From the IMG/VR virus record IMGVR_UViG_2700989044_000001, positions 11,683-75,682 of that record: a stretch of DNA of 64,000 nucleotides; one strand, given 5' to 3'. The translations under genes and the position numbers were made by a program. Below are positions 255 to 62,007 of the stretch, piece after piece; position 1 is the stretch's first letter, and every line of letters starts with the position of its first letter. Under the pieces are notes generated by a model that saw only the letters and a program-made list of their open reading frames with translations, was not told the DNA's origin and did no database searches. This stretch comes from a virus (Duplodnaviria; Heunggongvirae; Uroviricota; Caudoviricetes).

Positions 255-521
255 ATGAAACGTTTAATTAGCAAAACCGCTGCACGTTATGCTGCTTCAG
301 GTGAGATGGAAAAACTAATTGGCTACTTAGTTACAAGAAGTTCTGGTTTAAGATTAGAAAAACAACATTTTGATGATATTATCGAGCATTTTAATGAGAA
401 TGGCGGAAGTTTAAAAGGTATACAAGGTAAAGAAAAAGAAGATAAAGGTTTTTATTATGAAAAGCTTCATAACTCTATAGATAAGATTTTGAAAAAACAC
501 AAACTAAAAAATAAAAATTAA
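255..521 (+). CDS. hypothetical protein with MKRLISK N-terminal leader
   Basis: ORF with RBS gga-gttg upstream; N-terminus MKRLISK belongs to the recurrent leader family. Confidence 0.5.
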   Translation: MKRLISKTAARYAASGEMEKLIGYLVTRSSGLRLEKQHFDDIIEHFNENGGSLKGIQGKEKEDKGFYYEKLHNSIDKILKKHKLKNKN

Positions 522-653
522 TTACTAAAATTGGTGTTTTCTTAAAAGAAAATACCTTTTTTTTATAAAAAGAGTTATCATAATAAGATAATTAACATAT
601 TATATCCTTGAAGACAATTAGAACGTTTTATTTTAGAGAAGGTGGTGTAACAC

Positions 654-2600
654 GTGAGTGATCGTATCATCACGAATTTTACAGAAAAAGATTTCCAAAT
701 GGCTAAGCAAGCAGCATCAAAACCTAATGGCATGTCTAATAACCATGGCGGCGGAAGTTTGATGCGTAGTGCGTTGTTACAAGATAAGAACGGTTTACCT
801 AAAAATATACAAAGAAAAATGGCTTCCCCTTCAGTAGGTATGGGTAATATATCTATGGGTAACCCAAGTTTCTATCACCCAGTATTCCAAAACATGAACA
901 TCATGTTGCCACGTGATAGACGCGAAAGAAATGAATGGTGTAGACATTTCTATAGAACAGAACCAATTATAGCTACTTCATTAGATCTTCATACAGAATT
1001 CCCGATTTCAGATTTTAACAATGTTGTATCTGATGATGGGATTAAAGAGTTTTTTGATTACATGGCATTTGAAAGATTAGACTTAGTTAATTTATTGTTA
1101 GATATTGGTTTGGAGTATTGGAAATTAGGAGATGTATTCCCATTTGGTCAATTAAATGAACAAGACGGTATGTGGGAAAGATTTGTTATTTTAAATCCTG
1201 ACTATGTTGACATAAAAGCATCTATATTAGCTGGTGATCCAGTTATTGAATTAATACCTGACGAAACTGTAAAAGCTATTATTGATGCTGGTCCTCGTGG
1301 CGATTACTCTAGTATTTATAGTCAATTCCCAGAGGATGTAGTGAGACAAGTGAGAATGGGAAGAAACATTAGACTTGATAATAGATTAGTTTCTCACATT
1401 GCTCATAAAGCGTCTCAATATGAGACTTGGGGAACTCCAATTATGATGCGTTGTTTCAAAACTTTAATCTATAAAGACAAACTAAGAGAAGCTCAAAACG
1501 CAATTGCGAGTAGACATGTTACTCCATTAAGGATATTCAAAGTTGGCGCACCAGGTGAACCTATGCCTTCGCAAGAAGATTTAGATTCTTTACGTGATAC
1601 TTTAATCCAAGCTGATGATGATCCAAACTTCATGCTTGTATATCACTATGCATTACAAACTGACTATGTAGGTTCTGCTGGTAGAATTTTACCATTAAAC
1701 CAAGAATTTGATTTCATTCAAAAAGAGCTTATGAACGGTTTAGGCATTAACCAAGCTATGTTAAACGGTGAAGGTCCAACATATTCAAATGCTCAAGTTG
1801 GTATGGATGCATTAGCTAGAAGATACATGTCATATCGTTTAAGATTAGAGTCTTGGATTAGACAAAAAGTTTATAGACCAATTTCTGAAATACAAGGTTT
1901 TTATAAACCTACAAATGGCACTGTCGCAAGAAGATACTTAAGTTCAAAAGAACAAAGAAAACTTGCTGATAGAAAAGAAATGCAATTAATTGTTCCTGAG
2001 ATTTCTTGGAGTCAACAAGATTTAACTTCAAATCAATCTGTTCTTAACTTTATTCAACAATTACAATCTAAGGGACTTGTTTCTATGAGCACGATATTAC
2101 CAATGCTTAAACTTGACCCAGAAACAGAGCGTAAAAATCTTGAGCAAGAACGTGGTTCTGTATTTGATACTAATGCTCCTAAAGCACCAAGCGGTGGAGG
2201 CGCACCTGGAGGACCTAGTGGTGGAGCACCAAAACCTCCAACAACGCCTGACAGCCCTGGCCCTAATAATGGAAATAAACCGGGCGGGCCACCAACGCCA
2301 GGTGGGCCAAAAGGAAATGATGCGCCGGGTAAAGCTGATCCAAGTTCATTTGGATTCCCAGGTAAAGGCGCTCCTCCTGAAAACAAAGCTCCATCGCCAA
2401 ATGATAAGAGTCAAGGTGACAGTCCAGCTCCTACACCATCGTCTGCACCTACGCCACCACCAGTTGGACCAAAGCACTCTAGTTTATCGGATTTTTTAGC
2501 AAAAGACGGGGTTCAAAAAGAAGAGAAGATAGCGTCTATGGACTCCCGTTCTTCAGTAAAAGTCAGACGCTATCAGAAGGAAGACAAGACGGAGAAATAA
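654..2600 (+). CDS. portal protein (SPP1 gp6-like)
   Basis: 648-aa ORF, GTG start after GAAGGTGG RBS; portal-like conserved core; Pro/Gly-rich low-complexity C-terminal tail. Confidence 0.8.
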   Translation: MSDRIITNFTEKDFQMAKQAASKPNGMSNNHGGGSLMRSALLQDKNGLPKNIQRKMASPSVGMGNISMGNPSFYHPVFQNMNIMLPRDRRERNEWCRHFYRTEPIIATSLDLHTEFPISDFNNVVSDDGIKEFFDYMAFERLDLVNLLLDIGLEYWKLGDVFPFGQLNEQDGMWERFVILNPDYVDIKASILAGDPVIELIPDETVKAIIDAGPRGDYSSIYSQFPEDVVRQVRMGRNIRLDNRLVSHIAHKASQYETWGTPIMMRCFKTLIYKDKLREAQNAIASRHVTPLRIFKVGAPGEPMPSQEDLDSLRDTLIQADDDPNFMLVYHYALQTDYVGSAGRILPLNQEFDFIQKELMNGLGINQAMLNGEGPTYSNAQVGMDALARRYMSYRLRLESWIRQKVYRPISEIQGFYKPTNGTVARRYLSSKEQRKLADRKEMQLIVPEISWSQQDLTSNQSVLNFIQQLQSKGLVSMSTILPMLKLDPETERKNLEQERGSVFDTNAPKAPSGGGAPGGPSGGAPKPPTTPDSPGPNNGNKPGGPPTPGGPKGNDAPGKADPSSFGFPGKGAPPENKAPSPNDKSQGDSPAPTPSSAPTPPPVGPKHSSLSDFLAKDGVQKEEKIASMDSRSSVKVRRYQKEDKTEK

Positions 2601-2653
2601 TAATTGTAGAACAGGGCTGGAGAGAATTGCTTGAGAGAATGGGGGTGAGCAAA

Positions 2654-4014: not shown

Positions 4015-4389
4015 ATGAATGATAATAAAAATTTAGCAATTATTTGTGATATACGAAATAGGACTCCAATTGGAGTAATATGTTCTTGTCCAGTTACAGG
4101 CGATCTAGCTTTCTCAACAGAGAATAAAATGTTAGAAGAAACATTAGAAATAATTCTTAGCAGTAAATCATTTCTTTATTCAAAAGAAAAAGTAAATGAA
4201 CAATCAATGATAAATAGAGAAGAAATCAATCCCAATGATCATTATTACTTGATGGCAATTGATTTCTCTCTGCCATTTCCTTGGAGAATACTAGGAATAA
4301 CTTCTGTAGAAGGGGATATAGAACAAATAGTAGGAAATGCCATTGAAATGCTAAAAGAAGGAGGAAACAATTTTGAAACGATTGATTAA
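4015..4389 (+). CDS. hypothetical protein
   Basis: ORF in co-directional array, RBS-like GGTG upstream. Confidence 0.4.
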   Translation: MNDNKNLAIICDIRNRTPIGVICSCPVTGDLAFSTENKMLEETLEIILSSKSFLYSKEKVNEQSMINREEINPNDHYYLMAIDFSLPFPWRILGITSVEGDIEQIVGNAIEMLKEGGNNFETID

Positions 4390-4687
4390 AAAGTCTAACC
4401 ATGTTGAACCATCTATTCATAATGAGGTGGAAGACAAGATTATACATCCAAACACAAATATAAATGAGAATCAAAACCCATCATTTTTATTAACAAGACA
4501 ACTATTTGCAGATACTGCTTTCACGCCTACTGCAACTATTAGTTATCAATTTGCTAGAAAAATTGAAAATGGTGAGTTTAGTCACCTTGGTTCTATTGAA
4601 GAAGCAAGGGGTAATTGGTCAGAATGGTTGAACGCTTTAGATAGTTTTTTAGAAGAATCAGGTCACAAAGGTTTAAAAAAAAACTAA
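4373..4687 (+). CDS. hypothetical protein with MKRLIKK leader
   Basis: TTG start preceded by AAGGAGGAAACAA; N-terminal MKRLIKKS. Confidence 0.45.
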   Translation: MKRLIKKSNHVEPSIHNEVEDKIIHPNTNINENQNPSFLLTRQLFADTAFTPTATISYQFARKIENGEFSHLGSIEEARGNWSEWLNALDSFLEESGHKGLKKN

Positions 4688-5157: not shown

Positions 5158-6060
5158 ATGATAAAATATACATTTCCTGTTAAGATTGCAGGACATAGTA
5201 ATATGGTATCAAAAGTTACATTAGAGAAGAATAGAAGACCAGACTTATCTTTATTAAATAAATCCAATTCGCTTGGTTTAGTGAAAACAGCTGCTAAGGT
5301 TGTAAAGATTGCTCCTAAAGAAGATGATTTTTTATATGTTCGAGTTAGAGCGGTATCTGCGGGTAATGTTATAGAACACAAAAATGGTTTTGCTGAATTA
5401 GTTGAAATGCAAGATCTTATGAATAACTTAGATAAATACGCGGAGAAAATTCGTGGAGCAAATGATAACGGGGATTTTTTCTCTTACGATGAATTAAAAA
5501 GAACTTATAAAACATTTATTGGTAAAGCAGCATTCGTTGATCATCAAAATGAAAATGTTGAAGAAGCTAGAGGGATTATTTTAGATGCTATTTGGAATGA
5601 GCGTGGTAAATTTGTAGAATTACTTATCGCTGTTGATAAAAAAGCATTCCCTGAACTAACTCGTGGAATTGAAATGGGATATATCTCTGATGTTTCAATG
5701 GGATGTCGTTGTGAAAAATCGATTTGTTCTATTTGCGGAAATGAAGCCATTGTTGAAGAAGATTTCTGCGATCATATTTTAACCGCTAAAGGTAGAACTA
5801 TTGATAACAAACCTGTTTTTGAAGATAACTTAGGTATTGAATTTTTTGAAATCAGTTTTGTTAGTCAAGGTGCAGATAGACAAGCTAAAATCCTAGAGAA
5901 AGTTGCATCTAAATCTGGTATTAAAGGTATTGAAGCATTAACAAATGATATTTCTAAACCAGAATCAGTGTTATTAAAAATAGCTAGTGAAAAAAATAAG
6001 CGCGAAGATGCTAAATCAGTATCATTTAAAGATAAGCTTAACAACCTCCCTTGGAGTTAA
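5158..6060 (+). CDS. prohead protease-like head maturation protein
   Basis: Position between portal and scaffold/capsid; conserved His (AFVDHQNE) and Ser (ISDVSMG) segments reminiscent of HK97-family prohead proteases; unverified. Confidence 0.5.
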   Translation: MIKYTFPVKIAGHSNMVSKVTLEKNRRPDLSLLNKSNSLGLVKTAAKVVKIAPKEDDFLYVRVRAVSAGNVIEHKNGFAELVEMQDLMNNLDKYAEKIRGANDNGDFFSYDELKRTYKTFIGKAAFVDHQNENVEEARGIILDAIWNERGKFVELLIAVDKKAFPELTRGIEMGYISDVSMGCRCEKSICSICGNEAIVEEDFCDHILTAKGRTIDNKPVFEDNLGIEFFEISFVSQGADRQAKILEKVASKSGIKGIEALTNDISKPESVLLKIASEKNKREDAKSVSFKDKLNNLPWS

Positions 6061-6082: not shown

Positions 6083-6571
6083 ATGAGTAAAAAAATATCA
6101 CGTCTTAAGAAAACAGCATTAATGCCTACTCAAATGTTTGAATCTCAACTAGATCAAATTAGCGACAAAGGGAGAGATGTTTTAAAAGCTTTAGAAGATT
6201 ATAAGTTCTTTGTTGACCAAACTTCAAGAGTTATGAAAAATGATCCAGCTTTAATTGAAGTTATTGTTGGTAAGAAAAAGAATTTAGAGGAAGCATCTGC
6301 TAAAATTTATGATATAGTTTTTGATATTGAAAATCTTGACATTTCTGCTTTGTATGAAAGACAAGAAGAAAAGACTAATGAAAACCAAGGTATTCAAGTT
6401 CCTGAAAGTCAAGATGATTCCAATAAGGAAGAGGTCAAGGAAGAACCTGAAAAAGATTCCAATGAGGAAGTTCCTAAAGAAGAAAACAAAGAACAAGAAA
6501 ATCCTAATGAATCTAAAGATGAGAATACTAAGAATGAAGAAAAACAGGAAGAAAAAGATAAAAAAGAATGA
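6083..6571 (+). CDS. acidic Glu/Lys-rich protein (scaffold-associated?)
   Basis: ORF with RBS AAAGGGGAAATATT; C-terminal half is KEE/EEK low-complexity. Confidence 0.45.
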   Translation: MSKKISRLKKTALMPTQMFESQLDQISDKGRDVLKALEDYKFFVDQTSRVMKNDPALIEVIVGKKKNLEEASAKIYDIVFDIENLDISALYERQEEKTNENQGIQVPESQDDSNKEEVKEEPEKDSNEEVPKEENKEQENPNESKDENTKNEEKQEEKDKKE

Positions 6572-8182: not shown

Positions 8183-8929
8183 ATGTACAAAATAGCTATT
8201 TGTGCTGGTCATGGTTTCAACACTCCTGGTAAGAGAACTCCAGATGGTGAAAGAGAATGGAGCTTTAACAATAAGTTAGTTGTTGCTTTCGTTAACACTA
8301 TGAATCAGTATGAGAATGTTACTGTTAAGCGTTATGATGATCCAACGGGTAAAACTGACGTGCCTTTAATTACTCGTACTAATGGGGCAAACGCTTGGGG
8401 AGCAAACATCTACATTTCATTCCACCACAACGCTAATACTGCTAAATGGGGTACTTGGACAGGTGTTGAAACTTTCTACTATCCAGGTTCTACGACTGGA
8501 TTGAACTTAGCTAAAGCTATTCACCCAGCAGTTGTTCAATCTTATGGATTGAAAGATAGAGGCGTTAAGTCTGGAAATCTTCACATCGTTAGAGAAACAA
8601 AAATGCCAGCTATTTTAATCGAAGGTGGATTCATGGATTCTACTATCGATATTAAAAAACTTAGAAGCGACGCTGTATTAAAAGCTGCTGGTGAAAACAT
8701 TGCTCATGCTGTAGCTAAGTACGCTGGTTTAAAGAAAAAATCTTCTACTTCTACTCCTAAACCGCCAACTCCTACTACTCCAAATGCTGCAACTTACACT
8801 GTAGTTAAAGGAGATACTCTGTATGGAATTTCTCAAAAATTTGGAATCAGTGTCGATACTATCAAATCATTAAATGGTTTGAAAACTAATACTATCTCTA
8901 TTGGGCAGGTATTAAAGGTAAAAAAGTAG
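8183..8929 (+). CDS. N-acetylmuramoyl-L-alanine amidase (Amidase_3) with C-terminal LysM domain
   Basis: N-terminus IAICAGHG...PG motif typical of CwlA/Amidase_3; C-terminus YTVVKGDTLYGISQKFGISVDTIKSLNGL is a LysM repeat; RBS AAGAGGTGA. Confidence 0.85.
   Translation: MYKIAICAGHGFNTPGKRTPDGEREWSFNNKLVVAFVNTMNQYENVTVKRYDDPTGKTDVPLITRTNGANAWGANIYISFHHNANTAKWGTWTGVETFYYPGSTTGLNLAKAIHPAVVQSYGLKDRGVKSGNLHIVRETKMPAILIEGGFMDSTIDIKKLRSDAVLKAAGENIAHAVAKYAGLKKKSSTSTPKPPTPTTPNAATYTVVKGDTLYGISQKFGISVDTIKSLNGLKTNTISIGQVLKVKK
8920..8926 (+). other. A_AAA_AAG slippery heptamer (candidate -1 frameshift site) at amidase stop
   Basis: Sequence A AAA AAG in the amidase zero frame immediately before TAG; the -1 frame continues open into the glucosaminidase ORF. 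Confidence 0.5.
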
Positions 8930-9186
8930 AAGATGTAACTGCTGATAGTTTCTATCGAGTTTTTGTTAATGGAAAACAGGTAGGCGCATTTTCAGTTAAA
9001 GAGAATGCTTATGAAGACGGTTGGAAACAATATAATTCTGGAAAAACAGATGCTTATTTAGTAGAACCAAATGGTAGTAAATATACTTTCAACGCTCACC
9101 AATCTGAAAACCCTAACAAAAAACAAGACGAAACTAATTCTACAAAAAACCCTATTTTAGGTAAATCAGTAGTTACATCTAGTCAA

Positions 9187-9852
9187 ATGGTAACTCTTGT
9201 AAAATCAAAAAACCCTAATGCTAAAAATATTGAAGAAATTGCTGAAGCCTTCTTAAAGGTTGGCGAAAAATACGGACTTCGTGGAGATATTGCATTTTGT
9301 CAGTCAATTATCGAAACGGGTTGGTTTAGATTTGATGGCGGTACTGCGGTTACTCCAGATCAACATAACTATTGCGGACTTGGAGTTACGAGTACGGGTA
9401 TTAAAGGAGCTGTATTTGCCACTATTAAAGATGGTGTAACTGCACAAATACAACATCTTTATGCTTATGCTACTAAATCGGCACTACCAGCTGGAGAAAC
9501 TCTATTGGATCCAAGATTCCAATACGTTACAAGAGGTATAGCTCCAAATTGGGAAGATTTAAGTAATAGATGGGCTATGAATGCTAATTATGGAACTCAA
9601 ATCTTGAATATGTATAATCAATTATTACAAGTTCCTGCATCTAATACTTCTCCTGAAAAACCAAATACACCAAAACCTAAAGAAGAAAAAAAGGATGTTC
9701 TTTTTACACATTCAGAAATCAACAATAAACAATATGCTTCTGTCGTAATTGACGGAAAAGGATATATAGCGGTTTCAGATGTTGCAGATTTACTTGATTT
9801 AAAAGTAGTATTTGACAAGGTTACTAAAGAAATTATCTTCATTAAAAAATAA
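9187..9852 (+). CDS. peptidoglycan hydrolase, glucosaminidase-domain (LytD-like); frame open upstream to 8926 without a start codon
   Basis: AFCQSIIETGWF...YCGLG glucosaminidase motifs; same frame is stop-free for 86 codons upstream and encodes a SPOR-like segment (YRVFVNGKQVGAFSVKENA). Confidence 0.7.
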   Translation: MVTLVKSKNPNAKNIEEIAEAFLKVGEKYGLRGDIAFCQSIIETGWFRFDGGTAVTPDQHNYCGLGVTSTGIKGAVFATIKDGVTAQIQHLYAYATKSALPAGETLLDPRFQYVTRGIAPNWEDLSNRWAMNANYGTQILNMYNQLLQVPASNTSPEKPNTPKPKEEKKDVLFTHSEINNKQYASVVIDGKGYIAVSDVADLLDLKVVFDKVTKEIIFIKK

Positions 9853-9879
9853 TCTTTTAGTCAAACAAGTTAAAGAGAG

Positions 9880-10410
9880 GTGGCAATTATGGAACAAGTT
9901 ATTGATTTAATCATACCGTTCATTGCTTTAGCTTTTCTTAGTGTGATGATTGATAAGTTCACTTTGTTTTTAGAGCAAATTGTTCATAAAATCCCACACT
10001 TCCCAGATTACTTTGAATGGTATACCGCTTATGCTGTAGTATTAATTATAAGTACTATGGTTTGTTGGCAGGGTGATTTTAGATTTTTTGACTATTTAAA
10101 TCTTTATTTCCCTGTTTGGTTAGATTATTTTATGAGTGGTTTAGTTATTAGTGGAGGAAGTGCATTTGTTAGAACTCAATTCAGTATGATAGAAGCAATC
10201 CCTTCTACTGTTACTGGCATAGCATCTTCATTTACTAGACTTTTACCAGGTAGAAAAGATAGCAATGTAGATCAATCAAATAACAATTCAACTGCTCCTA
10301 ATAAAAATAGCCAACCTAATGTAACTCCAAACTATACTGAGGAAGAGTATTATCCTCCAGCAACTGAAGAAATAGATACTAACTCAAATCGTTATACTGA
10401 TGATATTTAA
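9880..10410 (+). CDS. membrane protein (holin-like, 3-4 TM segments)
   Basis: Hydrophobic helices, follows lysin genes; RBS AAGAGAGGTGG. Confidence 0.5.
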   Translation: MAIMEQVIDLIIPFIALAFLSVMIDKFTLFLEQIVHKIPHFPDYFEWYTAYAVVLIISTMVCWQGDFRFFDYLNLYFPVWLDYFMSGLVISGGSAFVRTQFSMIEAIPSTVTGIASSFTRLLPGRKDSNVDQSNNNSTAPNKNSQPNVTPNYTEEEYYPPATEEIDTNSNRYTDDI

Positions 10411-10426
10411 ATAAAAGGAGGGAAAA

Positions 10427-10786
10427 ATGATGAATGAATTATTATCTTCAATTTTAAGTGATCTTTTAATTCTTGTAACTACAGTTGGTGCAAGCTATTT
10501 AGTATTATTCCTTAAAAATAAACTTGGTGTTGAAAAGTTAAAGAAAATTCAACAAGAATCTGAATTATTAAGAGAAGTGGTTGAAGCTGGTGTTAGATAT
10601 GCAGAACAACGTTTTAGTAGTGGTGAGAAATTAGATGAAGCTGCTAAATGGATTTCTGAAAGACTTGGCGAAAAAGGAATTAACGCTACTCCTGAAGAAA
10701 TTAACGGTTTAATTGAGTCTACTGTACGTCGTTTTAAAGATGAATTTGGTAATGAATGGGCAAACGCAGTAAAAGATGAAAAATAA
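10427..10786 (+). CDS. holin-like protein (single N-terminal TM, LL-H holin-like architecture)
   Basis: N-terminal TM helix followed by charged C-terminus; RBS AAAGGAGGG; adjacent to lysins. Confidence 0.45.
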   Translation: MMNELLSSILSDLLILVTTVGASYLVLFLKNKLGVEKLKKIQQESELLREVVEAGVRYAEQRFSSGEKLDEAAKWISERLGEKGINATPEEINGLIESTVRRFKDEFGNEWANAVKDEK

Positions 10787-11606: not shown

Positions 11607-12455
11607 ATGAGTCAATTATCAAATCAAGAAAAAGAATATTTAATTTCAAAAGCTCTTGAAACTGAAGAAGGCCGTGTAGCATTAGCTCAAGCAATGGCTA
11701 ACCCAATTCGTGTTTCTCTAGACTACCAAGGTGTAGGTCGTAAACTTTTAGTTGTTGACCCACTACCACAAGGCGCATTACCAGTTTACGATAAAGATGT
11801 TGACGCGAAAGCGTTCGTTATCTCTAAACGTGGTCAAGTACCTGATCAAGTTATCGAAGGTGACAGAATTCAAGTTCCAACTTTCGAAATCGTTTCTTAC
11901 CCACAAGTAAGATTCTCACAAGTTAAAGAGCGTCGTTTCAACGTTATTGACCGTGCTCAACAACGTGCTAAAGCTGATATCATGGCTGTTGAAGATGCTG
12001 AAATCTTCTCACTTTTAGAAGGTGCTGCTACAGCAGTTAACGCAGTTACTATCTCTTCTGGTGGTTTACAACGTGCAGCTTTAACTAAAGCTTTCCAAGA
12101 AGTAGAAAAACATGACTTAGTTGTTACTAAAATCGTTATGAACGCTTCTGCTTTCGCTGATATCCGTGCATGGGGACAAAACGAGTTCGACCCTGTAACT
12201 CAACACGAAGTATTACAAACTGGTTTATTCGGACACATCTGGACTGCAGATATCTTAATCTCTAAGAAAGTTCCTCAAAACACAGTTTATGTACTTGCTG
12301 ATCCTGAATTCGTAGGTGTTATGCCTATCCGTCAAGATATTCAAGTAATTCCAGCTGACAAGCCCGAAGAATTACGTCTCGGCTGGGTAATTTACGAAGA
12401 ATTGGGCCTTGCGGTAGTTAACTCTTTAGCAATTGCTAAAATTTCAATCCAATAA
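11607..12455 (+). CDS. major capsid protein (HK97 fold)
   Basis: 282 aa; capsid-like sequence; strong RBS TAGGAGG; high-expression codon bias; strong terminator downstream. Confidence 0.6.
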   Translation: MSQLSNQEKEYLISKALETEEGRVALAQAMANPIRVSLDYQGVGRKLLVVDPLPQGALPVYDKDVDAKAFVISKRGQVPDQVIEGDRIQVPTFEIVSYPQVRFSQVKERRFNVIDRAQQRAKADIMAVEDAEIFSLLEGAATAVNAVTISSGGLQRAALTKAFQEVEKHDLVVTKIVMNASAFADIRAWGQNEFDPVTQHEVLQTGLFGHIWTADILISKKVPQNTVYVLADPEFVGVMPIRQDIQVIPADKPEELRLGWVIYEELGLAVVNSLAIAKISIQ

Positions 12456-16535: not shown

Positions 16536-17051
16536 ATGAAGAGATTAATTAAGAAAGCTTCGGTCTATGATGTTCCTGAGGAATTTTTATTTTATTGGTG
16601 TTCAAGTCCAAGTGATATAAAATATAATTATCCAGAATCTATAGAAAAGATAGCTAATGAAAATACAGATTGTATTTTTAGTGGTGATGCTTATAGATAT
16701 ATTGAGTTACCTAATTTCGAGTATCAAGATAAAGAAATAGATCAATTACTTAAAGAAGCATGGGATGAAGTACAAACAGTCGAGAAGTATAGTTCATTCG
16801 CTTCATCAAAAAGAGGCGTAGAGCATTTTATTACAACTGATTATAGAAGTTTTGGAATTATTATTGAAGCGAATGTTAGCGGGATTGATATAAAGAAACT
16901 AACAAATAAGTATCGCGATACTGTAGATGAACAAGTTTTCGAATACGCTGATACAGAAGATGAAATAGTGACTTTGGATGTTGTTGATTCTTGGGATATA
17001 GCTGCAATAGTTATTGAAGAAGAGGTAGAGTGGATTCAGAGTGATATTTAA
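16536..17051 (+). CDS. hypothetical acidic protein with MKRLIKK leader
   Basis: RBS AAAAGGAGAG; N-terminal MKRLIKKAS. Confidence 0.5.
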   Translation: MKRLIKKASVYDVPEEFLFYWCSSPSDIKYNYPESIEKIANENTDCIFSGDAYRYIELPNFEYQDKEIDQLLKEAWDEVQTVEKYSSFASSKRGVEHFITTDYRSFGIIIEANVSGIDIKKLTNKYRDTVDEQVFEYADTEDEIVTLDVVDSWDIAAIVIEEEVEWIQSDI

Positions 17052-23498: not shown

Positions 23499-24632
23499 AT
23501 GAAACGTTTAGTAAAAGCTGAACAACAGAGTAGTACTATCAAATTAATGCATGGTACATCTAGTAAATTAGCTGAATCTATTTTTGAAAACGGTCTTTTA
23601 CCGCAAGGATTGACTGATACAAAAATGTTTAATTATAGTGATTATGGTAGAGAAGGCGACGCAAGACATATTGAATGCGTATATTTAACTGATGATTTAG
23701 AAAATGCTGTTAGATACGCTAACAATGCTGTTAAACATAAGGGAGGATTTCCTTTAATTTTCGAAGTGGAAGTTGAGAAATCTGCTTTAACATGGGATGA
23801 CGATGCTTTTTATAAAAACTATGGCGATTTTGATTTTGGAGAAAAAGATGAAGAGTCTGGTACTTGGATCAAAAAACCATCTAAGCAATTGTGGGAACAA
23901 TCATTAACTATCAATAATCAATGTGCTCATTATGGCAAAATTGAAAGAGACAGTTTTAAAAGAATTAACTTAAATTCAAAATGGATCAATATTTATAATT
24001 TTATTAGAATTTACAATAGCTACGATAAGATGAATTTAAAACCAGAGTTGTTAAAAGAAAAAGAAGAATATTACTACAAAGAATTTAGTTTAGAAATAGA
24101 CGATAATTTAAAATTAATGGCTTCGATTATTGACAGAAATATATTTTTGTACAATTTAGAAATCGTAAAATCGCTTGATAAATTCGAAAAACAAGCTTTT
24201 TCATTGATCTTAATGGAATTTTTAAAGGACAATTTGAAAGAATTTGGAGCTAAAATTTTCTATACTTCAGATTTTAAATCATTAAATTTCAATCCAAAAA
24301 TTTCTAGTTTAAACTACGCTTTTGGTAGATTTGAAATAAATAGTTTAGAAAGCATACTTGATCACGTACAATTACGAATTCAACGTATGGATGAAGACTC
24401 TATAATGATGTCGAAGATAGTTAATTGCGAAGCTTCTGAAGAAGAATTTGACTTAATTTATGAGTATAGCATTGATTTCTCTGGAGATTTAATCGAATTC
24501 TGCGAAAAATCTTTACAAATGGATAATGATTCTATTCTTGATGTTTTAAAAAGAGTTAAACATCAGTATAACGATGCGTATAACGAGTTAGATGCTGAAA
24601 TCGAATACTTATTGTATAGAGATCATAAATGA
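23499..24632 (+). CDS. ADP-ribosyltransferase-fold protein (PARP/Tpt1-like NAD-binding lobe) with MKRLVK leader and ~270-aa C-terminal extension
   Basis: LMHGTSSKLAESIFENGLLPQGL...CVYLTDDLENAVRYA...FEVEVE resembles the HGT-GLLP-VHLSxDxExA pattern of KptA/Tpt1 and the H-Y-E lobes of PARPs; RBS AATAGGAGGA. Confidence 0.5.
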   Translation: MKRLVKAEQQSSTIKLMHGTSSKLAESIFENGLLPQGLTDTKMFNYSDYGREGDARHIECVYLTDDLENAVRYANNAVKHKGGFPLIFEVEVEKSALTWDDDAFYKNYGDFDFGEKDEESGTWIKKPSKQLWEQSLTINNQCAHYGKIERDSFKRINLNSKWINIYNFIRIYNSYDKMNLKPELLKEKEEYYYKEFSLEIDDNLKLMASIIDRNIFLYNLEIVKSLDKFEKQAFSLILMEFLKDNLKEFGAKIFYTSDFKSLNFNPKISSLNYAFGRFEINSLESILDHVQLRIQRMDEDSIMMSKIVNCEASEEEFDLIYEYSIDFSGDLIEFCEKSLQMDNDSILDVLKRVKHQYNDAYNELDAEIEYLLYRDHK

Positions 24633-26764: not shown

Positions 26765-27220
26765 ATGAAGAAATTTTCTAGGTTACAGAAAAAAGCAGCT
26801 GGAGTTCCAGTTGAGAATCTATTAAATGATTTAAGTCAAAAAGGTTTAGATGCAAGTGCTGAAGGCGAAAAGATAACTGTAAGAAATGGTAACATTGAAG
26901 ATTTTGCAGAAGTTTTGAAAAAATATAGAATGTTAGACGAGTATGGTTTCTTTTTGTATGGTGGTTTCCAATCAGATGGGACAGTTCTTATTTCAAATGA
27001 AGAAGTAAAAGATGCTGAGGTTCTTTTTACTTATTCTTACAATGGGTATGTTGATGTAGATTACACAGCGGATGAGCTTTTTAATCATCAAAGTATACAA
27101 CTAAAAAGATTGGCGAGTAACTTTAATAAAGTTTTTGCTAATTTGGGTAATTGTGTATTTGCATTCCAAGATACAGAAATAGAATTCTTTGAGTTAAGTC
27201 GTATGATTAATCCATCTTAA
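26765..27220 (+). CDS. hypothetical protein
   Basis: ORF after GAAGGAGATT. Confidence 0.4.
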   Translation: MKKFSRLQKKAAGVPVENLLNDLSQKGLDASAEGEKITVRNGNIEDFAEVLKKYRMLDEYGFFLYGGFQSDGTVLISNEEVKDAEVLFTYSYNGYVDVDYTADELFNHQSIQLKRLASNFNKVFANLGNCVFAFQDTEIEFFELSRMINPS

Positions 27221-27340: not shown

Positions 27341-27949
27341 ATGAAAAAGAGACTTTTAAAGAAAATTTCAGCGCCTTCTTTAGAAAGAATCTTACCAGGT
27401 TACCCTAATGATTTCATACATTCTGAAAAAGGTTTAGAAATAGTTAATGTTGATGATATTATTGGTATGAGTTTTAGCAGAGCTGATGAATATGATGATA
27501 ACTTTCAACCTATTGGCGAACCAGATGATAGATGGAAAAGTTTACATGATAGAGCTTTACAGGAAGGTAATTTAGACTTCGCAGGACCTATCCATTTAGT
27601 TCAACAAAGTGGTGATAATAAGTATTATGTTTATGATGATGGTAACCATAGGCTTTCAGTTGCTAAATTTCTCAATATCCCAACTCTTCAAGCTGTAGTT
27701 ACGGTTTTGATTCCTAAAAACGATGAAATCGAAGCTGAAATAGAAGGAATAATGAAAGAAATAAAAAAACAAGAATCAATATTGAATCAACTAACAAAAG
27801 AGCAAAATAATCTATGGAATGATGATTTATCTTTAGATGAAATTAATTTAAAGGTAGATGAAATAGAAGAAAAGAAAAAACCATTGTATGAAACGATAGA
27901 TAATCTTTGGCTTAAATTAACAAATTATCAAAATAATTTAATAAATTAA
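27341..27949 (+). CDS. ParB/Srx-like nuclease domain protein with MKKRLLKK leader and C-terminal coiled coil
   Basis: DDGNHRLSVAKF matches the DGxHR..A ParB-N motif; RBS ACAGGAGGTAAAA. Confidence 0.5.
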   Translation: MKKRLLKKISAPSLERILPGYPNDFIHSEKGLEIVNVDDIIGMSFSRADEYDDNFQPIGEPDDRWKSLHDRALQEGNLDFAGPIHLVQQSGDNKYYVYDDGNHRLSVAKFLNIPTLQAVVTVLIPKNDEIEAEIEGIMKEIKKQESILNQLTKEQNNLWNDDLSLDEINLKVDEIEEKKKPLYETIDNLWLKLTNYQNNLIN

Positions 27950-48858: not shown

Positions 48859-48919
48859 ATATCAGAAGATAATTGTATTCGAGATATGTCGGTTCAATTC
48901 CCAAATCTTCTAATTATAT

Positions 48920-48997: not shown

Positions 48998-49008
48998 TAA
49001 AAACAAAA

Positions 49009-50202: not shown

Positions 50203-50487
50203 ATGATGGAAAAGAAGCCAAAGAAGCCAAAGTATAAAATGCTAAAAGATTTTAGATTAAAGCTTTTGTTATTTGAAAGCTTAGAAGACAAGCGCATAAA
50301 CTCAATATCAAATATAGATATTTACTATACAAAAGTTAAATCCGGTAAGTTTTTATTTCCATGTAAGAAGAAAATATTAGTTAGACTTACTGTCGAAGAA
50401 GAATTATTTGTTTTAGAATGTATGACAAAAAATTTGGATTTACAAAAACTAACTATGGGATACGAATATGAAATAGAATATAAATGA
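50203..50487 (+). CDS. tandem paralog 1 (EYEIEYK family)
   Basis: Shares the VKSGK...ECMTKNLDLQKL...EYEIEYK core. Confidence 0.5.
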   Translation: MMEKKPKKPKYKMLKDFRLKLLLFESLEDKRINSISNIDIYYTKVKSGKFLFPCKKKILVRLTVEEELFVLECMTKNLDLQKLTMGYEYEIEYK

Positions 50488-50496
50488 GGTTAAATT

Positions 50497-50775
50497 ATGG
50501 TAAATAGGGGTGCGTACGAAAAACTAGCTGATGTACAAATAAAAGGCGGCATCATTAAAGATCTTGTAAAACAAGATATAGAGTCAATATCAGATATAGA
50601 GATTTATCATAAGAAAGTTAAAACTGGTAAACGCTATTTCTCTCGTAAAAAAGACGTAAGAGTTATTAAATTTATTATACGTAGTGAAGAGTTATTTGTT
50701 ATTGAATGTATGACTAAGAACTTAGATTTACAAGAATTAGCAGGCGGAAATGAGTATGAAATAGAATATAAGTGA
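50497..50775 (+). CDS. tandem paralog 2
   Basis: ...VKTGK...ECMTKNLDLQELAGGNEYEIEYK. Confidence 0.5.
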   Translation: MVNRGAYEKLADVQIKGGIIKDLVKQDIESISDIEIYHKKVKTGKRYFSRKKDVRVIKFIIRSEELFVIECMTKNLDLQELAGGNEYEIEYK

Positions 50776-50784
50776 GGGGAAATA

Positions 50785-51069
50785 ATGTCTCAAAGTACAA
50801 CATTCGATGTATTGCATAACGCAGCGATTGAAGCCTTTATTAAAAAGAAAGTTGAAGAAAGAGATTTAAAATCTATATTAGAAGTGGAAGTTCGTTTTAA
50901 ATCAGTTAAAACTGGTAAAAAAGTTTTCTTTTTCTTTTCAAAAAAGAAACAAATAGGTATTGTGAGATTTAAGGTTAATGAAGAGTTGTCTATTATAGAA
51001 CACATGACAAAAGGATTAGATTTTAAAGAATTAGCGGGTAAAAGAGAATATGAAATAATATACGTTTAA
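50785..51069 (+). CDS. tandem paralog 3
   Basis: ...VKTGKK...FKVNEELSIIEHMTKGLDFKELAGKREYEIIYV. Confidence 0.5.
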   Translation: MSQSTTFDVLHNAAIEAFIKKKVEERDLKSILEVEVRFKSVKTGKKVFFFFSKKKQIGIVRFKVNEELSIIEHMTKGLDFKELAGKREYEIIYV

Positions 51070-51093
51070 GAAACAAGCGAGAGGAGAAGAACT

Positions 51094-51393
51094 ATGACTA
51101 AAGGCGAAATGTCTAATAGAGATAAAGTTACTATTTTAAGAAATGCAGCTATTAAATCTTCCGTTAGAAAAAATATTGAACAAAGAGATTTAGAATCCAT
51201 ATTGGAAGTAGAAGTTTGTTTCCAAATAGTTAAAACTGGTGAATACGTTTCACTAGTTGAAAATAGAGATGAAGCAGTAACTATTGTGAGATTTAAAGTC
51301 GATGAAGAATTATCTCTCATAGAGCATATGATAAAGGGATTAGACTTTAAAGAATTAGCGGGTAAAAGAGAATATGAAATAATATATGTTTAA
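51094..51393 (+). CDS. tandem paralog 4
   Basis: ...VKTGE...FKVDEELSLIEHMIKGLDFKELAGKREYEIIYV; 3' ~75 nt about 90% identical to paralog 3. Confidence 0.5.
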   Translation: MTKGEMSNRDKVTILRNAAIKSSVRKNIEQRDLESILEVEVCFQIVKTGEYVSLVENRDEAVTIVRFKVDEELSLIEHMIKGLDFKELAGKREYEIIYV

Positions 51394-51403
51394 GGAGCTT
51401 TTT

Positions 51404-51685
51404 ATGTCTGATAAAAATGATTTCCATAGATTATTTAACAGTTTAGATATACAAAGAATTATGGATACAATTTCAGAGAAAAAATTCAAATCAATATTAG
51501 AAGTAGATATTAATTACAAGAAAATCCCAACGGGTAAAAAATTTCTTTTTTTCCAACGTAAAGAGATGATTTTTATTTTCAAATTTAAAGTTAATGAAGA
51601 GCTTTCAATTATTGAGCATATGACAAAAGGCTTGAATTTCCAAGAATTAACAAAAGGTTGTAAGTATGAAATAGAATATGTATGA
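51404..51685 (+). CDS. tandem paralog 5
   Basis: ...IPTGKK...FKVNEELSIIEHMTKGLNFQELTKGCKYEIEYV; ATG after AAGGAG. Confidence 0.5.
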   Translation: MSDKNDFHRLFNSLDIQRIMDTISEKKFKSILEVDINYKKIPTGKKFLFFQRKEMIFIFKFKVNEELSIIEHMTKGLNFQELTKGCKYEIEYV

Positions 51686-51986
51686 GGTGTTTAAATTGCC
51701 TAACGATAAAGAGATAGATGAATTCTATTTTAGTGCTATTCATTTTTTGATGGAACATTCAGTTAGAGAAGGTCCATTTAAAAGTATTGAAAAGGTAGAA
51801 GTAATAAGTAAAGAATTTAAATATACAAGGTTTTGTTTCACTCTCAAGAAATCTGTAACAGTTGTTAAGTTTGTTGTAAATGAAAGTATACTTGTTGCTG
51901 AAACTTTAATGAATAATTTAAATATTGAGAATTTCTTGAATTCTATATGTGGAAAGGAATACAAATGGGAAATTGAGTATATTTAA
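51678..51986 (+). CDS. tandem paralog 6 (divergent)
   Basis: Divergent but ends KFVVNES...GKEYKWEIEYI. Confidence 0.45.
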   Translation: MYEVFKLPNDKEIDEFYFSAIHFLMEHSVREGPFKSIEKVEVISKEFKYTRFCFTLKKSVTVVKFVVNESILVAETLMNNLNIENFLNSICGKEYKWEIEYI

Positions 51987-53568: not shown

Positions 53569-53958
53569 ATGAAAAAAAGATTGAAAAGAAAATCTAATAG
53601 TATATTAAATGTCAATGATATATGCGTTAATTACGATTATGTACATGGTGCGTTAGAAAATATTACTTTTGGTCGCATTAGTCAATCAGAAGGACAACCT
53701 TTAGAAATATGGAAAGCAGAGGATGGTAACTTGGTTTTAATTAACGGTTACCATCGCTTTGTAGAAGGTATATTGAAGGGTTTAAATGAGTTTGATGTTA
53801 TTTATGTTGAGTATGATGATGAAAATAAAGAATATATTGATGAGTATAATCCTTCAGCATATGATTTCCTTAATAAGAATTCAAAATATAGAGGGTTAGA
53901 AGATTTCAAGAGTGAAGAAGAATTAGATGAACTCGCATCACTACTATTAGAAGGGTAG
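53569..53958 (+). CDS. hypothetical protein with MKKRLKRK leader (possible ParB-like GYHR motif)
   Basis: LINGYHRFVEG resembles the ParB-N DGxHR motif; N-terminal MKKRLKRK. Confidence 0.4.
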   Translation: MKKRLKRKSNSILNVNDICVNYDYVHGALENITFGRISQSEGQPLEIWKAEDGNLVLINGYHRFVEGILKGLNEFDVIYVEYDDENKEYIDEYNPSAYDFLNKNSKYRGLEDFKSEEELDELASLLLEG

Positions 53959-56049: not shown

Positions 56050-56253
56050 ATGAAAAAATTGATTAGTAAGTTTAAATCTTTTTTTGAGAGAGTTGGAGAA
56101 CTTTTATTTAAAATTTTAGATCGTAGAGTATCTGTAGCTAAAGTAGCAAAAGCTGAAGATCTTGTAATTAGTAATGCTTCTTTAAAAAATATAAAAAGGG
56201 GAATGAGAAAAGTTTATAATGAAGTGTATGGTGCCAGAGAAGATAAAAAATAA
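56050..56253 (+). CDS. hypothetical protein with MKKLISK leader
   Basis: ORF after AATGGAGGTGTAG; N-terminal MKKLISKF. Confidence 0.4.
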   Translation: MKKLISKFKSFFERVGELLFKILDRRVSVAKVAKAEDLVISNASLKNIKRGMRKVYNEVYGAREDKK

Positions 56254-58667: not shown

Positions 58668-59147
58668 ATGATAACAGCTTTTAGAAGTGATTTAACTAAA
58701 TTGCAAAACGTAGATTATATAGTGAACGCTGCGAATGCAAAAGGTCCCATGGATTCTGGAATAGCTGGGGCAATAAGAATAAATGGTGGAACTGAAATAC
58801 AAGATGCTGCAATGTTAATATGTTCTAAATTAAATTATCAACCTGGAGATATTTATGTTACACATGCTGGTAGATTATCATTTAAGAAAATAATTCACCT
58901 TGTAACAATGGAAAACCCAGGTGGAGTAACTTCATATGATATTGTTAGAAAATGCCTTCAGAATTTAATTTTATACTGTAAAGTTAATAATATTAAGAAA
59001 ATCGCTTTACCAGCTTTAGGTACAGGTGTAGGTGGTTTAGATATTGATAAAATAGCAGGAATTTTTAAAGAAATATTGGGTAGTGTAGAAGAAATAGAGT
59101 TTTTAGTTGTAGATATTGATCCAATGTTTATTTACAATTTTAAATGA
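58668..59147 (+). CDS. Macro domain protein (ADP-ribose binding/hydrolase)
   Basis: YIVNAANAKGPMDSGIAGAI matches the macro-domain VNAAN...G..GAI signature; RBS AAAGGCGG. Confidence 0.55.
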   Translation: MITAFRSDLTKLQNVDYIVNAANAKGPMDSGIAGAIRINGGTEIQDAAMLICSKLNYQPGDIYVTHAGRLSFKKIIHLVTMENPGGVTSYDIVRKCLQNLILYCKVNNIKKIALPALGTGVGGLDIDKIAGIFKEILGSVEEIEFLVVDIDPMFIYNFK

Positions 59148-59182
59148 AATAAGTTGTTTTAAGAAAGATTATTTGATGTATA

Positions 59183-59218
59183 TAGGATATAGCTAGTTTA
59201 GCTATATCCTATTTTTTT
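59183..59218 (+). terminator. rho-independent terminator
   Basis: AGGATATAGCTA-GTT-TAGCTATATCCT followed by T7. Confidence 0.8.
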
Positions 59219-59246
59219 GATTTTAATATTGAAGAGGGTGTTTATA

Positions 59247-60167
59247 TTGAAAAGATTAAAGAGACAATCAAAAGTATTTAGACAATCAAGATTGAAAAAG
59301 AAATCTTGGGATGCAGTGAGTTTAAAACACTATACTAGTACCCAACATTTTATCGAGATAATGAACGAAGGCCAAATAACTCCTGGTGGTTACAATGGGA
59401 ATATCTCAGGTGGTGGACATGTTAAGTATTTATCGATGAGTGATGGCAGCAATACTACAAAAAAAATGTCACCATCAGAAATAGATAGATTATTCTCTAG
59501 TGATTTATGGGAAATTGATAAAGATTTATTGAACTATGTGAATGAAACGAAAGATACTGATGAATGGTACTCAAAACAAATTAATGTAAATATTATTCAA
59601 CCTAGTCATGATCAAAATGGTGTTTATTTAACTAATAGGTCTGATGAAAATGATTACGGAAAAGAAGCTGTTAATAATGGTTTAAGTGACGATTATCCTA
59701 ACTTTGAAATAACTTTAGAATTTAATGTTCAAACTGATGCATTAGGTCCTGACTTAGATGATGGTAAAATAGATAAAGAGAGCGAAACTCCACTTTGGAG
59801 ACAAACTATTGATTCTATAGGTCAGTGTGTACATTATGGTCCTATTTCTATTGACTCAATTAGCCAAGTGATAATAAAGGATTATGGTCAAATAAATGGA
59901 TATGAAATGAGGTTTTCAGATAGAGATAATTTTTTAAGTTGGGCTAGTGAATTTATAAGTTTTGAACAAGGTTTAAGTGCAGCAGATGCATATTCGCAAA
60001 TTCAAAAAATGTATGAAGAATTTGACAATTATTATGAAGAAGAAGACTTTGATGATGAAAATATTAATATCAACGACGATGATGATTTTGATGATGATGA
60101 TATTGATTTTGACATAGATGATTTCGAATTCCCTGAAGATGAATTAAATGATGATGATTTAAAGTAG
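59247..60167 (+). CDS. hypothetical protein with MKRLKRQ leader and poly-acidic C-terminus
   Basis: TTG at 59247 after AGAGGGTG (ORF-track 59217 start is an extension); C-terminal DDDDFDDDDIDFDIDDFEF. Confidence 0.45.
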   Translation: MKRLKRQSKVFRQSRLKKKSWDAVSLKHYTSTQHFIEIMNEGQITPGGYNGNISGGGHVKYLSMSDGSNTTKKMSPSEIDRLFSSDLWEIDKDLLNYVNETKDTDEWYSKQINVNIIQPSHDQNGVYLTNRSDENDYGKEAVNNGLSDDYPNFEITLEFNVQTDALGPDLDDGKIDKESETPLWRQTIDSIGQCVHYGPISIDSISQVIIKDYGQINGYEMRFSDRDNFLSWASEFISFEQGLSAADAYSQIQKMYEEFDNYYEEEDFDDENININDDDDFDDDDIDFDIDDFEFPEDELNDDDLK

Positions 60168-61069: not shown

Positions 61070-61080
61070 GAGGGTAAGAT

Positions 61081-61560
61081 TTGATTAATTTAATAGTAGC
61101 TTTAGATAAAAATAATCTAATAGGTAAAGATAATGACCTCCCTTGGCGTTTGCCTAGAGATTTACAGTACTTTAAGTCAAGAACTTTAAATAGTCCTATT
61201 GTTATGGGTAGAAAAACTTTCCAATCGCTTCCAGGTTTGTTACCAGATAGACAACATGTCATTTTAACGAAAAGTGGATATGCTGTAAGAACGCCAAGAG
61301 CTGAATCTCATTCTTCAGTTGAAAGTGTATTAGAAAAATTTAAAGACAAAGATATATACGTAATTGGTGGTTCTGAAATCTTTAATTTGTTTTTATCTTA
61401 TGTAGATAGAATGTATGTTACTTACATCGATGAAGAATTCGAAGGAGATACTTATTTTCCAGATGTTTTAGATAATTGGAAAATGGTATCTAATGAAAAA
61501 GGGATAAAAGACGACAAAAACCCTTATGATTATTACTTTAGAGTATATGAAAAAAAATAA
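61081..61560 (+). CDS. dfrA: dihydrofolate reductase
   Basis: LIVALDKNNLIGKDNDLPWRLPRDLQYFK...IVMGRKTF...YVIGG; TTG start after TAGGAGGGTAAGA. Confidence 0.8.
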   Translation: MINLIVALDKNNLIGKDNDLPWRLPRDLQYFKSRTLNSPIVMGRKTFQSLPGLLPDRQHVILTKSGYAVRTPRAESHSSVESVLEKFKDKDIYVIGGSEIFNLFLSYVDRMYVTYIDEEFEGDTYFPDVLDNWKMVSNEKGIKDDKNPYDYYFRVYEKK

Positions 61561-61647
61561 ATTTATAATTTTTAAAAGGTATTTTTTGGATTATAATTTT
61601 GATTTCTCGTCCCTATTATGTATATGTAATGGGGAGGGGAAATTCAA

Positions 61648-62007
61648 ATGAAACGTCTTATTAAAAAGTCAGAAAAGACTTATGAAACTAAGAATGATAA
61701 TAATGAAGTTGAACAGCGTGAAGAAGTAGATAATGAAGTTCATGAAGAAGTACAAGAAACAAATCATGAAGAAGTACATCCTGCAGATATGGAGAGAGAA
61801 GACCCTTATCTTGGAAGATATGTAGAAATCACAAATCGTAGATCAAAGTATTATGGTTATCACGCAAGAGTAGATGATAAATTTTATACTGATAGATATA
61901 AAATTTACTTAGAACCAAAAAGAAGTGATGACGATGGTGGAAAAGGGTATATTATCAATTTTGTAGGTGTAAATGTTGCTTCTAACTGGTTTACTGTTGT
62001 TGAGTAA
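61648..62007 (+). CDS. hypothetical acidic protein with MKRLIKK leader
   Basis: RBS GGGGAGGGGAAATTCAA; N-terminal MKRLIKKSEK. Confidence 0.5.
   Translation: MKRLIKKSEKTYETKNDNNEVEQREEVDNEVHEEVQETNHEEVHPADMEREDPYLGRYVEITNRRSKYYGYHARVDDKFYTDRYKIYLEPKRSDDDGGKGYIINFVGVNVASNWFTVVE

Follow-up and report, generated by a model that had tools for sequence, protein, structure and literature searches.

The stretch of DNA analysed here, in the following called the window, comprises 64,000 nucleotides and is identical (100%) to a part of the genome of Bacillus phage G (NC_023719 / JN638751, 497,513 bp); its position 1 corresponds to position 11683 of the virus record and its end to position 75682. It contains the head module with the genes for the portal (gp14), the protease (gp19), a decoration protein (gp26) and the major capsid protein (MCP, gp27), followed by genes of replication and nucleotide metabolism up to gp130. 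Our subject is a short basic peptide, here called the tag, with which a number of proteins of this phage begin. An earlier note on this DNA had listed nine near-identical N-termini of the type MKRLIKK within the window. All nine were found at their positions and agree with the starts of the coding sequences (CDS) of gp13, gp17, gp38, gp53, gp57, gp111, gp117, gp123 and gp126 annotated at NCBI. A Shine-Dalgarno (SD) match of 5-7 bases precedes eight of these starts, that of gp13 (position 255) having 4 bases. As a member of the group, gp117 is doubtful because it has no Arg at position 3 and a basic body.

The motif was counted genome-wide, for which a simple SD-based gene caller delivered 632 genes. 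MKRL is the commonest N-terminal tetrapeptide of phage G and opens 19 of the 632 proteins, while the next commonest is found 3 times. The position-specific expectation is 0.5-1.1, and shuffling of the alignment columns never resulted in more than 9 occurrences. The extended pattern KRL[IVLM][KR][KRA] begins 11 times at position 2 and not once in the interior of the proteins (132,763 residues). Likewise, a position weight matrix (PWM) applied at a threshold of at least 14 bits matches 23 of the 632 N-termini, but only one of 8,709 internal windows. A genome scan that does not depend on predicted starts, by which gp172, gp213 and gp336 were gained, detected 25 genuine N-terminal carriers, corresponding to about 4% of the phage proteome, and one internal look-alike. 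The enrichment far above chance asserted for the window is therefore confirmed for the complete genome.

The earlier note had also pointed out that the codons of the tag differ between the copies, and this is correct. In the 19 MKRL genes, Arg is encoded by AGA (11), CGT (5), CGA (2) and CGC (1) and Leu by TTA (11), TTG (5), CTT (2) and CTA (1), which mirrors the synonymous codon usage of the genome, and the DNA upstream of the tagged genes is unrelated between the copies. Selection therefore acts on the peptide, and the tag is a shared, strictly N-terminal signal at the peptide level. A DNA repeat or a mobile cassette was ruled out on the same grounds.

Anatomy and distribution of the tag

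The comparison of N-termini was extended to the relatives of phage G and yielded 58 distinct carriers in the clade, to which the following values refer. The conserved unit comprises eight residues, M-K-R-L-[IV]-[KR]-[KA]-[AS], and no conservation is visible beyond residue 8. Met1, Arg3 and Leu4 are present in 100% of the carriers, and Lys is never found in place of Arg3. Position 2 is occupied by K (91%) or R (9%), position 5 by I or V (78%), position 6 by K or R (84%), position 7 by K (67%) or A (16%) and position 8 by A or S (64%). From the established specificity of methionine aminopeptidase, Met1 should be retained in front of Lys2. When the consensus is modelled as a helix, its hydrophobic moment reaches 0.92, which places it within the top 1.1% of the permutations of these residues; one face is made up of M1, L4, I5 and A8, and the opposite face of K2, R3, K6 and K7. 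The tag is hence predicted to form a short, basic and near-maximally amphipathic helix of two turns. The carrier bodies, described as acidic in part by the earlier note, have a median isoelectric point (pI) of 4.3 compared with 5.6 for the other phage G proteins (p = 1.4e-8). Exceptions are gp13, with a basic body of pI 9.3, gp117 and gp172.

Within the viral sequences, the tag is specific for the phage G clade. An IMG/VR-wide scan over 2.9 million viral contigs with the pattern SD + ATG-AAR-MGN-YTN-ATH-AAR-AAR returned 32 loci. An exact MKRLIKK opening an open reading frame (ORF) of at least 60 amino acids (aa) occurred only on contigs which share genes or the contig identifier with relatives of phage G, and the remaining loci were ORFs of 7-52 codons or S/F variants allowed by the degenerate pattern. 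From AR9 and c-st, two AT-rich jumbo phages that are unrelated to phage G, 50 kb each was sampled, and the tag count was 0 of 60 and 0 of 54, respectively. A generic basic N-terminus of AT-rich phages, the objection that the earlier note had raised against itself, is not what these scans found. In bulk metagenomes each locus showed the heptapeptide a single time, and in most cases it formed the n-region of an ordinary signal peptide or belonged to a junk ORF. Only loci of the G clade bear it on soluble proteins, one of them with three tagged genes side by side, and the metagenome-wide scan added four clade loci and no more.

Outside the clade, MKRLIKK thus resembles the charged n-region of Sec or lipoprotein signals. 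In the phage G carriers, however, neither a hydrophobic h-region nor a lipobox follows the tag, and residues 9-26 are polar or acidic. A secretion route, as considered in the earlier note, therefore has no support. Sec, Tat and lipoprotein signal peptides were ruled out by these residues and by the restriction of look-alikes with an h-region to sequences outside the clade.

The tag is modular and is kept or lost independently of the adjoining sequence. In the ortholog of gp126 (L040_4112), MKRLIKKS is kept while the following residues differ (MKRLIKKSEKTYE vs MKRLIKKSMDSNE). Orthologs of gp284 (MKRLMKKSFYKQ vs MKRLIKKSENSQ) and gp508 (MKRLIKASDLEG vs MRRLIRADENAD) also keep the tag next to diverged residues, and the same applies to gp13 (MKRLMAKSA in the relative L013), gp57 (MKRLIKKAR in the homolog L025_3630), gp213 and gp251, whose orthologs retain it despite diverged flanks. 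On the other hand, the presence of the tag varies between orthologs: the SLOG protein gp345 begins with MKRLIKKSKGDSNMIGFIGYSS, and its ortholog MSKRIGIVGYST begins directly at the domain. In fusion proteins of the relatives, an internal copy of the form '...SMKRLIRKAALP...' stands at the former start, and a new tag is found at the new N-terminus.

Gene fusions with an internal tag copy at the old start of the downstream partner were noticed at L170:2007 (384 aa), L031:1784 (294 aa), P0017/P0020 (long forms of gp20) and L024:13007 (a 428-aa form of gp17), and in most of them the new N-terminus is again MKRL. A further tagged cargo family recurs in the relatives (L032:7537, L031:1335, L017:18739, L170:114 and L170:1020). 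Its N-terminal region reads 'NRD-A-x-Y-[IV]-x-G-[EQ]-[IV]-[YF]...TH', and it has neither a Pfam match nor a homolog in phage G. Ten extra tagged proteins from the relatives matched no Pfam family save a weak zinc ribbon.

For a grouping into families, the first 10 residues of the carriers were removed. After collapsing paralogs, about 15 independent tagged families remain, so that the statement of the earlier note that the rest of each protein is unrelated applies to families rather than to all single proteins: gp53 is a paralog of gp123, and gp38 forms a family of three with gp347 and gp675, both of them tagged and encoded in other parts of the genome. The family of gp53 and gp123 is similar to ADP-ribosyltransferases (ART) and has seven members, all of them tagged (gp53, gp123, gp141, gp251, gp336, gp531 and gp610). 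Its core is H-x-T...VYL...PD-D...W with H14 and T16 invariant, and the family profile matches DarT (E = 1.3e-3) and Tpt1/KptA. Matches to Pfam PARP are sub-threshold, as in gp53, where the catalytic HGT is located at residues 18-20 and the match (E = 2.5e-4) stays under the curated cutoff. An AF2 model of gp251 was discarded at a predicted local distance difference test score (pLDDT) of 38.6. A GxHR signature of ParB/Srx proteins is present in gp57 (DGNHR) and gp111 (NGYHR), as in the carrier gp284, for which ParB_N is confirmed by Pfam. The labels ADP-ribosyltransferase and ParB-like given in the earlier note can thus be kept at a weak level, including the assignment of the seven-member family to the ADP-ribosyltransferase superfamily. 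Further carriers are similar to nucleoside deoxyribosyltransferases/NUDIX (gp334), SLOG (gp345), ferritin/Dps (gp346) and GNAT (gp508) proteins, and many are ORFans.

The carriers are concentrated in the head module. With a relaxed motif, 5 of 12 head-module genes of phage G are recognized in comparison to 21 of 620 genes elsewhere (odds ratio 20, p = 5e-5); when applied to internal positions, this expression gave 0 matches. Two of the carriers, gp13 and gp17, are located in the portal operon. Portal-homolog loci (60-84% identity) from eight relative lineages contain 0-6 tagged genes each, adding up to 20 of 173 (about 11.6%), whereas only 3 of 72 genes are tagged in the neighbourhoods of tail-sheath homologs. 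In all eight lineages, tag variants, some of them offset by 1-6 residues, are found on the families of gp10 (MKKSRLKKVS, MSRLKKNH), gp12 (MSRKRRLIS, MKDKGRLKKSY), gp13, gp17 (MKRLIKKEGN, MKSRLRKIAN, MSRLKKIAN, MKDLRTKKVAN) and gp20 (MKRLVKKSIM, MKRLIRKALM, MKSRLKKIALMP, MSRLRKVALM). In two lineages (L018 and L023), four to six small genes with the tag follow one another in the interval between portal and protease. By contrast, the tag is absent throughout from MCP, portal, protease, decoration and tail proteins, in phage G as well as in the eight lineages.

The case of gp20 deserves attention since its gene occupies the position of a scaffold gene. Among the 16 homologs of this family, R7 and L8 do not vary, and K10, A12 and M14 hardly do. 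The AF2 model shows a helical hairpin and a third helix at residues 16-101 (pLDDT >90) with an acidic disordered tail behind, and leaves residues 1-15 unstructured at low confidence, so that the motif would sit on a flexible N-terminal peptide. Searches of PDB and BFVD with Foldseek returned generic helical hairpins only. Gene position and predicted structure together suggest that gp20 is scaffold-like.

With regard to the timing of expression, a very strong promoter class similar to sigmaA promoters was observed at 73 genes. It consists of an extended -35 region AACAGTTTACA (GTTTACA), N17, an extended -10 region TGATATAAT, N5 and a TATAAGG start region aaataTATAAGGta, and lies mostly at 368-492 kb of the record (loci L009-L011), with one copy in the window upstream of gp74 (~38330-38398). 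The class is probably early and dependent on host sigmaA, and would mark the right third of the genome as early region. It precedes only 2 of the 25 carriers, and carriers are depleted in the early-promoter-rich region of 350-497 kb (4 of 227 vs 21 of 405 genes elsewhere, p = 0.03). The other indication as to timing is the location of gp13 and gp17 in the portal operon.

Table 1. Carriers of the tag and context genes in the window (all positions refer to the window).
Gene	Position	Strand	Length (aa)	N-terminus	Position of tag	Remarks
gp13	255..521	+	88	MKRLISKTA	255-278	directly upstream of portal gene
gp14	654..2600	+		no tag		portal; context gene
gp17	4373..4687	+	104	MKRLIKKSN	4373-4396	TTG start; head module, between portal and protease
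gp19	5158..6060	+		no tag		head maturation protease (PHROG match only); candidate processing enzyme
gp20	6083..6571	+	162	MSKKISRLKKTALM (offset variant)	~6098-6124	scaffold position, right after protease
gp27	11607..12455	+	282	no tag		major capsid protein; no delta domain
gp38	16536..17051	+	171	MKRLIKKAS	16536-16559	family gp38, gp347, gp675; phrog_25946, function unknown
gp53	23499..24632	+	377	MKRLVKAEQ	23499-23522	putative N-domain of ADP-ribosyltransferase superfamily
gp56	26765..27220	+	151	MKKFSRLQKKAAGV (possible offset variant)		PWM 9.5 bits at offset 4; weak member
gp57	27341..27949	+	202	MKKRLLKKI (one extra Lys)	27341-27367	ParB/Srx-like DGNHR at residue 100
gp111	53569..53958	+	129	MKKRLKRKS	53569-53595	NGYHR signature at residue 59
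gp117	56050..56253	+	67	MKKLISKFK		doubtful member; without Arg3, body pI 10.1
gp123	59247..60167	+	306	MKRLKRQSKVFRQSRLKKKS (two tandem motif copies)	59247-59306	TTG start; putative ART paralog
gp126	61648..62007	+	119	MKRLIKKSE	61648-61671	very acidic small protein

Possible function in the procapsid interior

By analogy to the capsid-targeting sequence (CTS) of phage T4, we tentatively regard the tag as a peptide that docks its carriers in, or targets them to, the interior of the procapsid, and would give this interpretation somewhat less than an even chance. The tag would dock its carrier onto a component of the interior of the assembling head, which could be either the scaffold/core or, on the HK97-fold capsid protein, its acidic N-arm. 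The head-core proteins gp10, gp12, gp13, gp17 and gp20 would assemble within the shell by means of the peptide. Some 20 acidic proteins with an acquired peptide, enzymes as well as ORFans, would be co-assembled into the procapsid, the enzymes including DarT/PARP-like ADP-ribosyltransferases, ParB/Srx-like, NUDIX/deoxyribosyltransferase-like, SLOG, GNAT and Dps-like proteins. This cargo could be delivered with the DNA in the manner of T4 Alt and the internal proteins, and the prohead protease gp19 may remove the tag. Docking, packaging, injection and removal of the tag by gp19 are all steps that we infer. The N-arm of gp27 (NQEKEYLISKALETEEGR) is acidic and conserved across the clade, and to see in it the docking partner of the tag is speculative. 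Because gp20 in the scaffold position bears the same motif as the cargo, the cargo could mimic the scaffold. In this narrower form, which appears possible but rather doubtful to us, the tag would be a natural cargo-loading peptide imitating the capsid-docking end of the scaffold, and the T=52 head of phage G and its relatives would also serve as a container for protein delivery, pre-loaded with about 20 acidic enzymes for injection. The capsid-targeting idea of the earlier note is in this way backed by circumstantial evidence, that is the enrichment in the head module, the tagged gp20, the small tagged proteins encoded in the interval from portal to protease and the untagged portal, protease, shell and tail proteins.

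Among the known systems, the T4 CTS is the closest in function, yet neither its sequence nor its cleavage site is recognizable in the tag. The CTS, an N-terminal propeptide of 10-20 residues, recruits IPI-III and Alt, an ADP-ribosyltransferase, to the scaffold core (PMC5694885). In both phages a short N-terminal peptide (10-20 aa in T4, 8 in phage G) is common to otherwise unrelated proteins, the carriers include a (putative, in phage G) ADP-ribosyltransferase and small hypervariable proteins, and some of the genes lie together with those of portal, protease and scaffold in a similar order (portal, small core proteins, protease, scaffold, MCP). The phage G tag, however, has no similarity to MKTYQEFIAE and is basic and amphipathic instead of acidic. 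Furthermore, the MCP of phage G is of the HK97 type with 282 aa and no propeptide, and gp19, whose family gave nothing significant in Pfam, NCBIfam or PDB, is not assignable to the T4 gp21 family.

A different precedent is provided by the coat-binding helices of scaffold proteins (the C-terminal helix-turn-helix of P22 gp8; the 80alpha scaffold with its SaPI1 CpmB mimic), which have been used to load cargo into P22 capsids. In P22, R293/K296 of the scaffold dock on D14/E15/E18 of the coat N-arm (PMC9965877). The tag would have in common with them the short basic amphipathic terminal helix and the electrostatic docking on the acidic N-arm of an HK97-fold coat (PMC9965877), and the bodies of scaffold proteins are acidic, as are those of the phage G carriers. 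The known coat-binding elements are, however, C-terminal, longer and not common to dozens of enzymes in a natural phage, and the scaffold role of gp20 is deduced from gene position and predicted structure. The cargo-loading peptides of encapsulins are also short, modular terminal tags, which are enough to bring a variety of enzymes into an HK97-fold shell and are gained or lost between homologs. They are usually C-terminal with another consensus, and encapsulins are not part of an infectious virion. In Firmicutes, a Prp-cleaved N-terminal extension is common to ribosomal protein L27 and the capsid and scaffold proteins of 80alpha and is removed by a dedicated protease. This represents a Firmicute-phage precedent for one short N-terminal leader on unrelated head proteins. 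Its consensus LxLQFF↓A is unrelated to the phage G tag, and it is found on capsid and scaffold proteins only and not on enzymes, whereas the MCP of phage G is untagged.

Several observations speak against a loading of the head by means of the tag. The 58 carriers have no conserved cleavage motif behind the tag, and in particular no site of the T4 type, where the Glu-terminated CTS is cleaved at L/I-x-E. In the ART carriers, the tag stands just 4-8 residues ahead of the catalytic His. The internal proteins of T4 are basic, the phage G carriers acidic. Internal-protein genes of T4 turn over fast, but a faster turnover of tagged genes was not seen, since a phage G homolog exists for 10 of 19 tagged genes in comparison to 135 of 225 neighbours. 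No late-promoter motif was found by eye upstream of the structural genes, nor by footprinting of the decoration/MCP upstream region in the eight lineages. Moreover, membrane-binding elements classically take the shape of a basic amphipathic helix as well. In favour of packaging, particle proteomics of phage G detected both the carrier gp346 and the protease gp19 (PMC12484599). Among the carriers, however, the accessible part of this text names gp346 alone, and the ParB-like gp284 is not among the detected endonucleases which it lists. The particle proteome reported there, in which 104 of 668 ORFs (~16%) were detected, also includes gyrase, SSB, polymerases, holin and spanin and is too permissive to discriminate (PMC12484599).

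Membrane binding leads to one alternative, which we consider unlikely: the tag could be a localisation signal for a site other than the capsid, with the helix binding to anionic membrane or nucleic acid and gathering acidic phage proteins at a membrane-associated site of assembly or replication. This would be in line with the near-maximal amphipathicity and the basic face of the tag, with its occurrence on acidic bodies, which would otherwise be repelled from anionic surfaces, with the identical heptapeptide being the n-region of signal peptides and transmembrane anchors in bacteria, and with the nucleation of T4 proheads on the inner membrane (PMC5694885). However, the concentration of the motif on proteins in scaffold/core position and its absence from other classes would be left unexplained, and the cargo is made up of soluble enzymes whose substrates are nucleotides and nucleic acids. 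The tag offers only four modest hydrophobic residues (M, L, I/V, A) without aromatics and no h-region behind it, and known membrane-targeting helices are longer. Quite unlikely, in our view, is an N-terminal degron or processing signal, read by the phage ClpXP (gp257/gp258), by host ClpXP or by the prohead protease, which would time the removal of scaffold-like and host-takeover proteins. N-terminal recognition motifs of ClpX exist, scaffold proteins are commonly destroyed in head maturation, and the invariant R3 and L4 suggest a specific reader. ClpP and ClpX are both encoded by phage G and were detected by proteomics (PMC12484599). But the tag is not known to match any of the published N-motifs of ClpX, and a ClpX homolog was not found on the tag-using contigs of the clade, including a 379-kb relative, in a search which finds close relatives only and on contigs that are mostly partial; and if the reader was the prohead protease inside the head, this explanation would partly overlap with docking in the procapsid. 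As to the origin of gp257/gp258 (L005:37784-39744), the closest relatives on viral contigs show 35-58% identity and belong to unrelated contigs (L186-L199) with 27-64% GC, none of them from the G clade, which suggests that ClpXP is a lineage-specific horizontal acquisition of phage G.

Very unlikely is an aid to translation initiation or early elongation, or to the solubility of very acidic proteins, without any role in targeting. Lys (AAA) at codon 2 and the A-rich codons would fit to the former, as would the proportion of weak TTG/GTG starts (28% of the 25 carriers and 37% of the 19 MKRL genes vs 25% of all genes), and the strong association with acidic bodies would fit to the latter. Yet the synonymous codons within the tag correspond to the genome average and indicate no constraint at the RNA level, while Arg3, never replaced by Lys, and Leu4 are invariant. 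The genes with the highest expression (MCP, decoration, sheath and tube) are untagged, which argues against a general expression enhancer. Besides, the tag is not used by other AT-rich Firmicute phages and is concentrated in one functional module. We see hardly any room for a compositional artefact, for common ancestry of all carriers as paralogs or for a DNA repeat. It is true that nine or ten carriers belong to only two families of paralogs, and Lys at position 2 is common in phage G (17.6%); but the about 15 independent families, the excess of 19 over 0.5-1.1 expected with 0 internal occurrences, the differing codons and the scans of IMG/VR and control phages, which were negative outside the clade, stand against this. 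Chance, paralogy alone and a generic AT-rich N-terminus are effectively refuted by the counts, the IMG/VR scan and the AR9 and c-st controls.

A literature search found no paper containing the motif, and the accessible text of the 2025 multi-omics study of phage G makes no mention of N-terminal motifs or propeptides (PMC12484599). No megaphage other than phage G has been cultivated, and for more than 65% of the phage G genes no function is known. The tag assigns 25 phage G proteins, and dozens more from uncultured relatives, to a common pathway and offers a direct experimental handle. If the tag indeed directs proteins into the head, the injected proteome of the megaphage clade could be read from sequence by an 8-residue code, and likely first-strike enzymes of host takeover and anti-defence would be identified. 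Transplanted onto foreign proteins, the 8 residues might then serve to package them into a very large capsid. The capsid-targeting principle of T4 would thereby have a second independent case, in an HK97-type head without a T4-like capsid protein, and the loading of cargo would be tied to scaffold docking, as in encapsulins. Even as a degron or localisation signal, it would represent a strictly N-terminal code with an invariant Arg-Leu on about 4% of the phage proteome that, according to the literature search, was not previously described.

Genes in the neighbourhood of the carriers

Further observations concern genes next to or between the carriers. Directly upstream of the ART paralog gp123 lies gp122, annotated as a macro domain (Appr-1-p processing), and together they form an ADP-ribosyl writer/eraser-type pair (window positions 58668-60167). 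An ADP-ribosylglycohydrolase (gp234) is also encoded by phage G, and an NAD salvage cluster (gp275-283) adjoins the tagged ParB-like gp284. The genes gp102-gp107 (50203-51986) are a tandem array of six paralogs of ~95 aa with 26-62% identity (E down to 1e-39) and of unknown function. An ORF of 54 aa on the minus strand (47507-47671) overlaps the annotated tRNA cluster (~46900-49000) and is almost certainly spurious. Finally, the head module of phage G contains a lysis cassette (8183-10786) between gp21 and the decoration gene, consisting of the endolysin gp22/23 (a two-piece joined CDS), gp24 and the holin gp25. In all relatives examined, the decoration gene comes after gp21 with at most one or two small ORFs in between, which makes the cassette look like an insertion that only phage G has.

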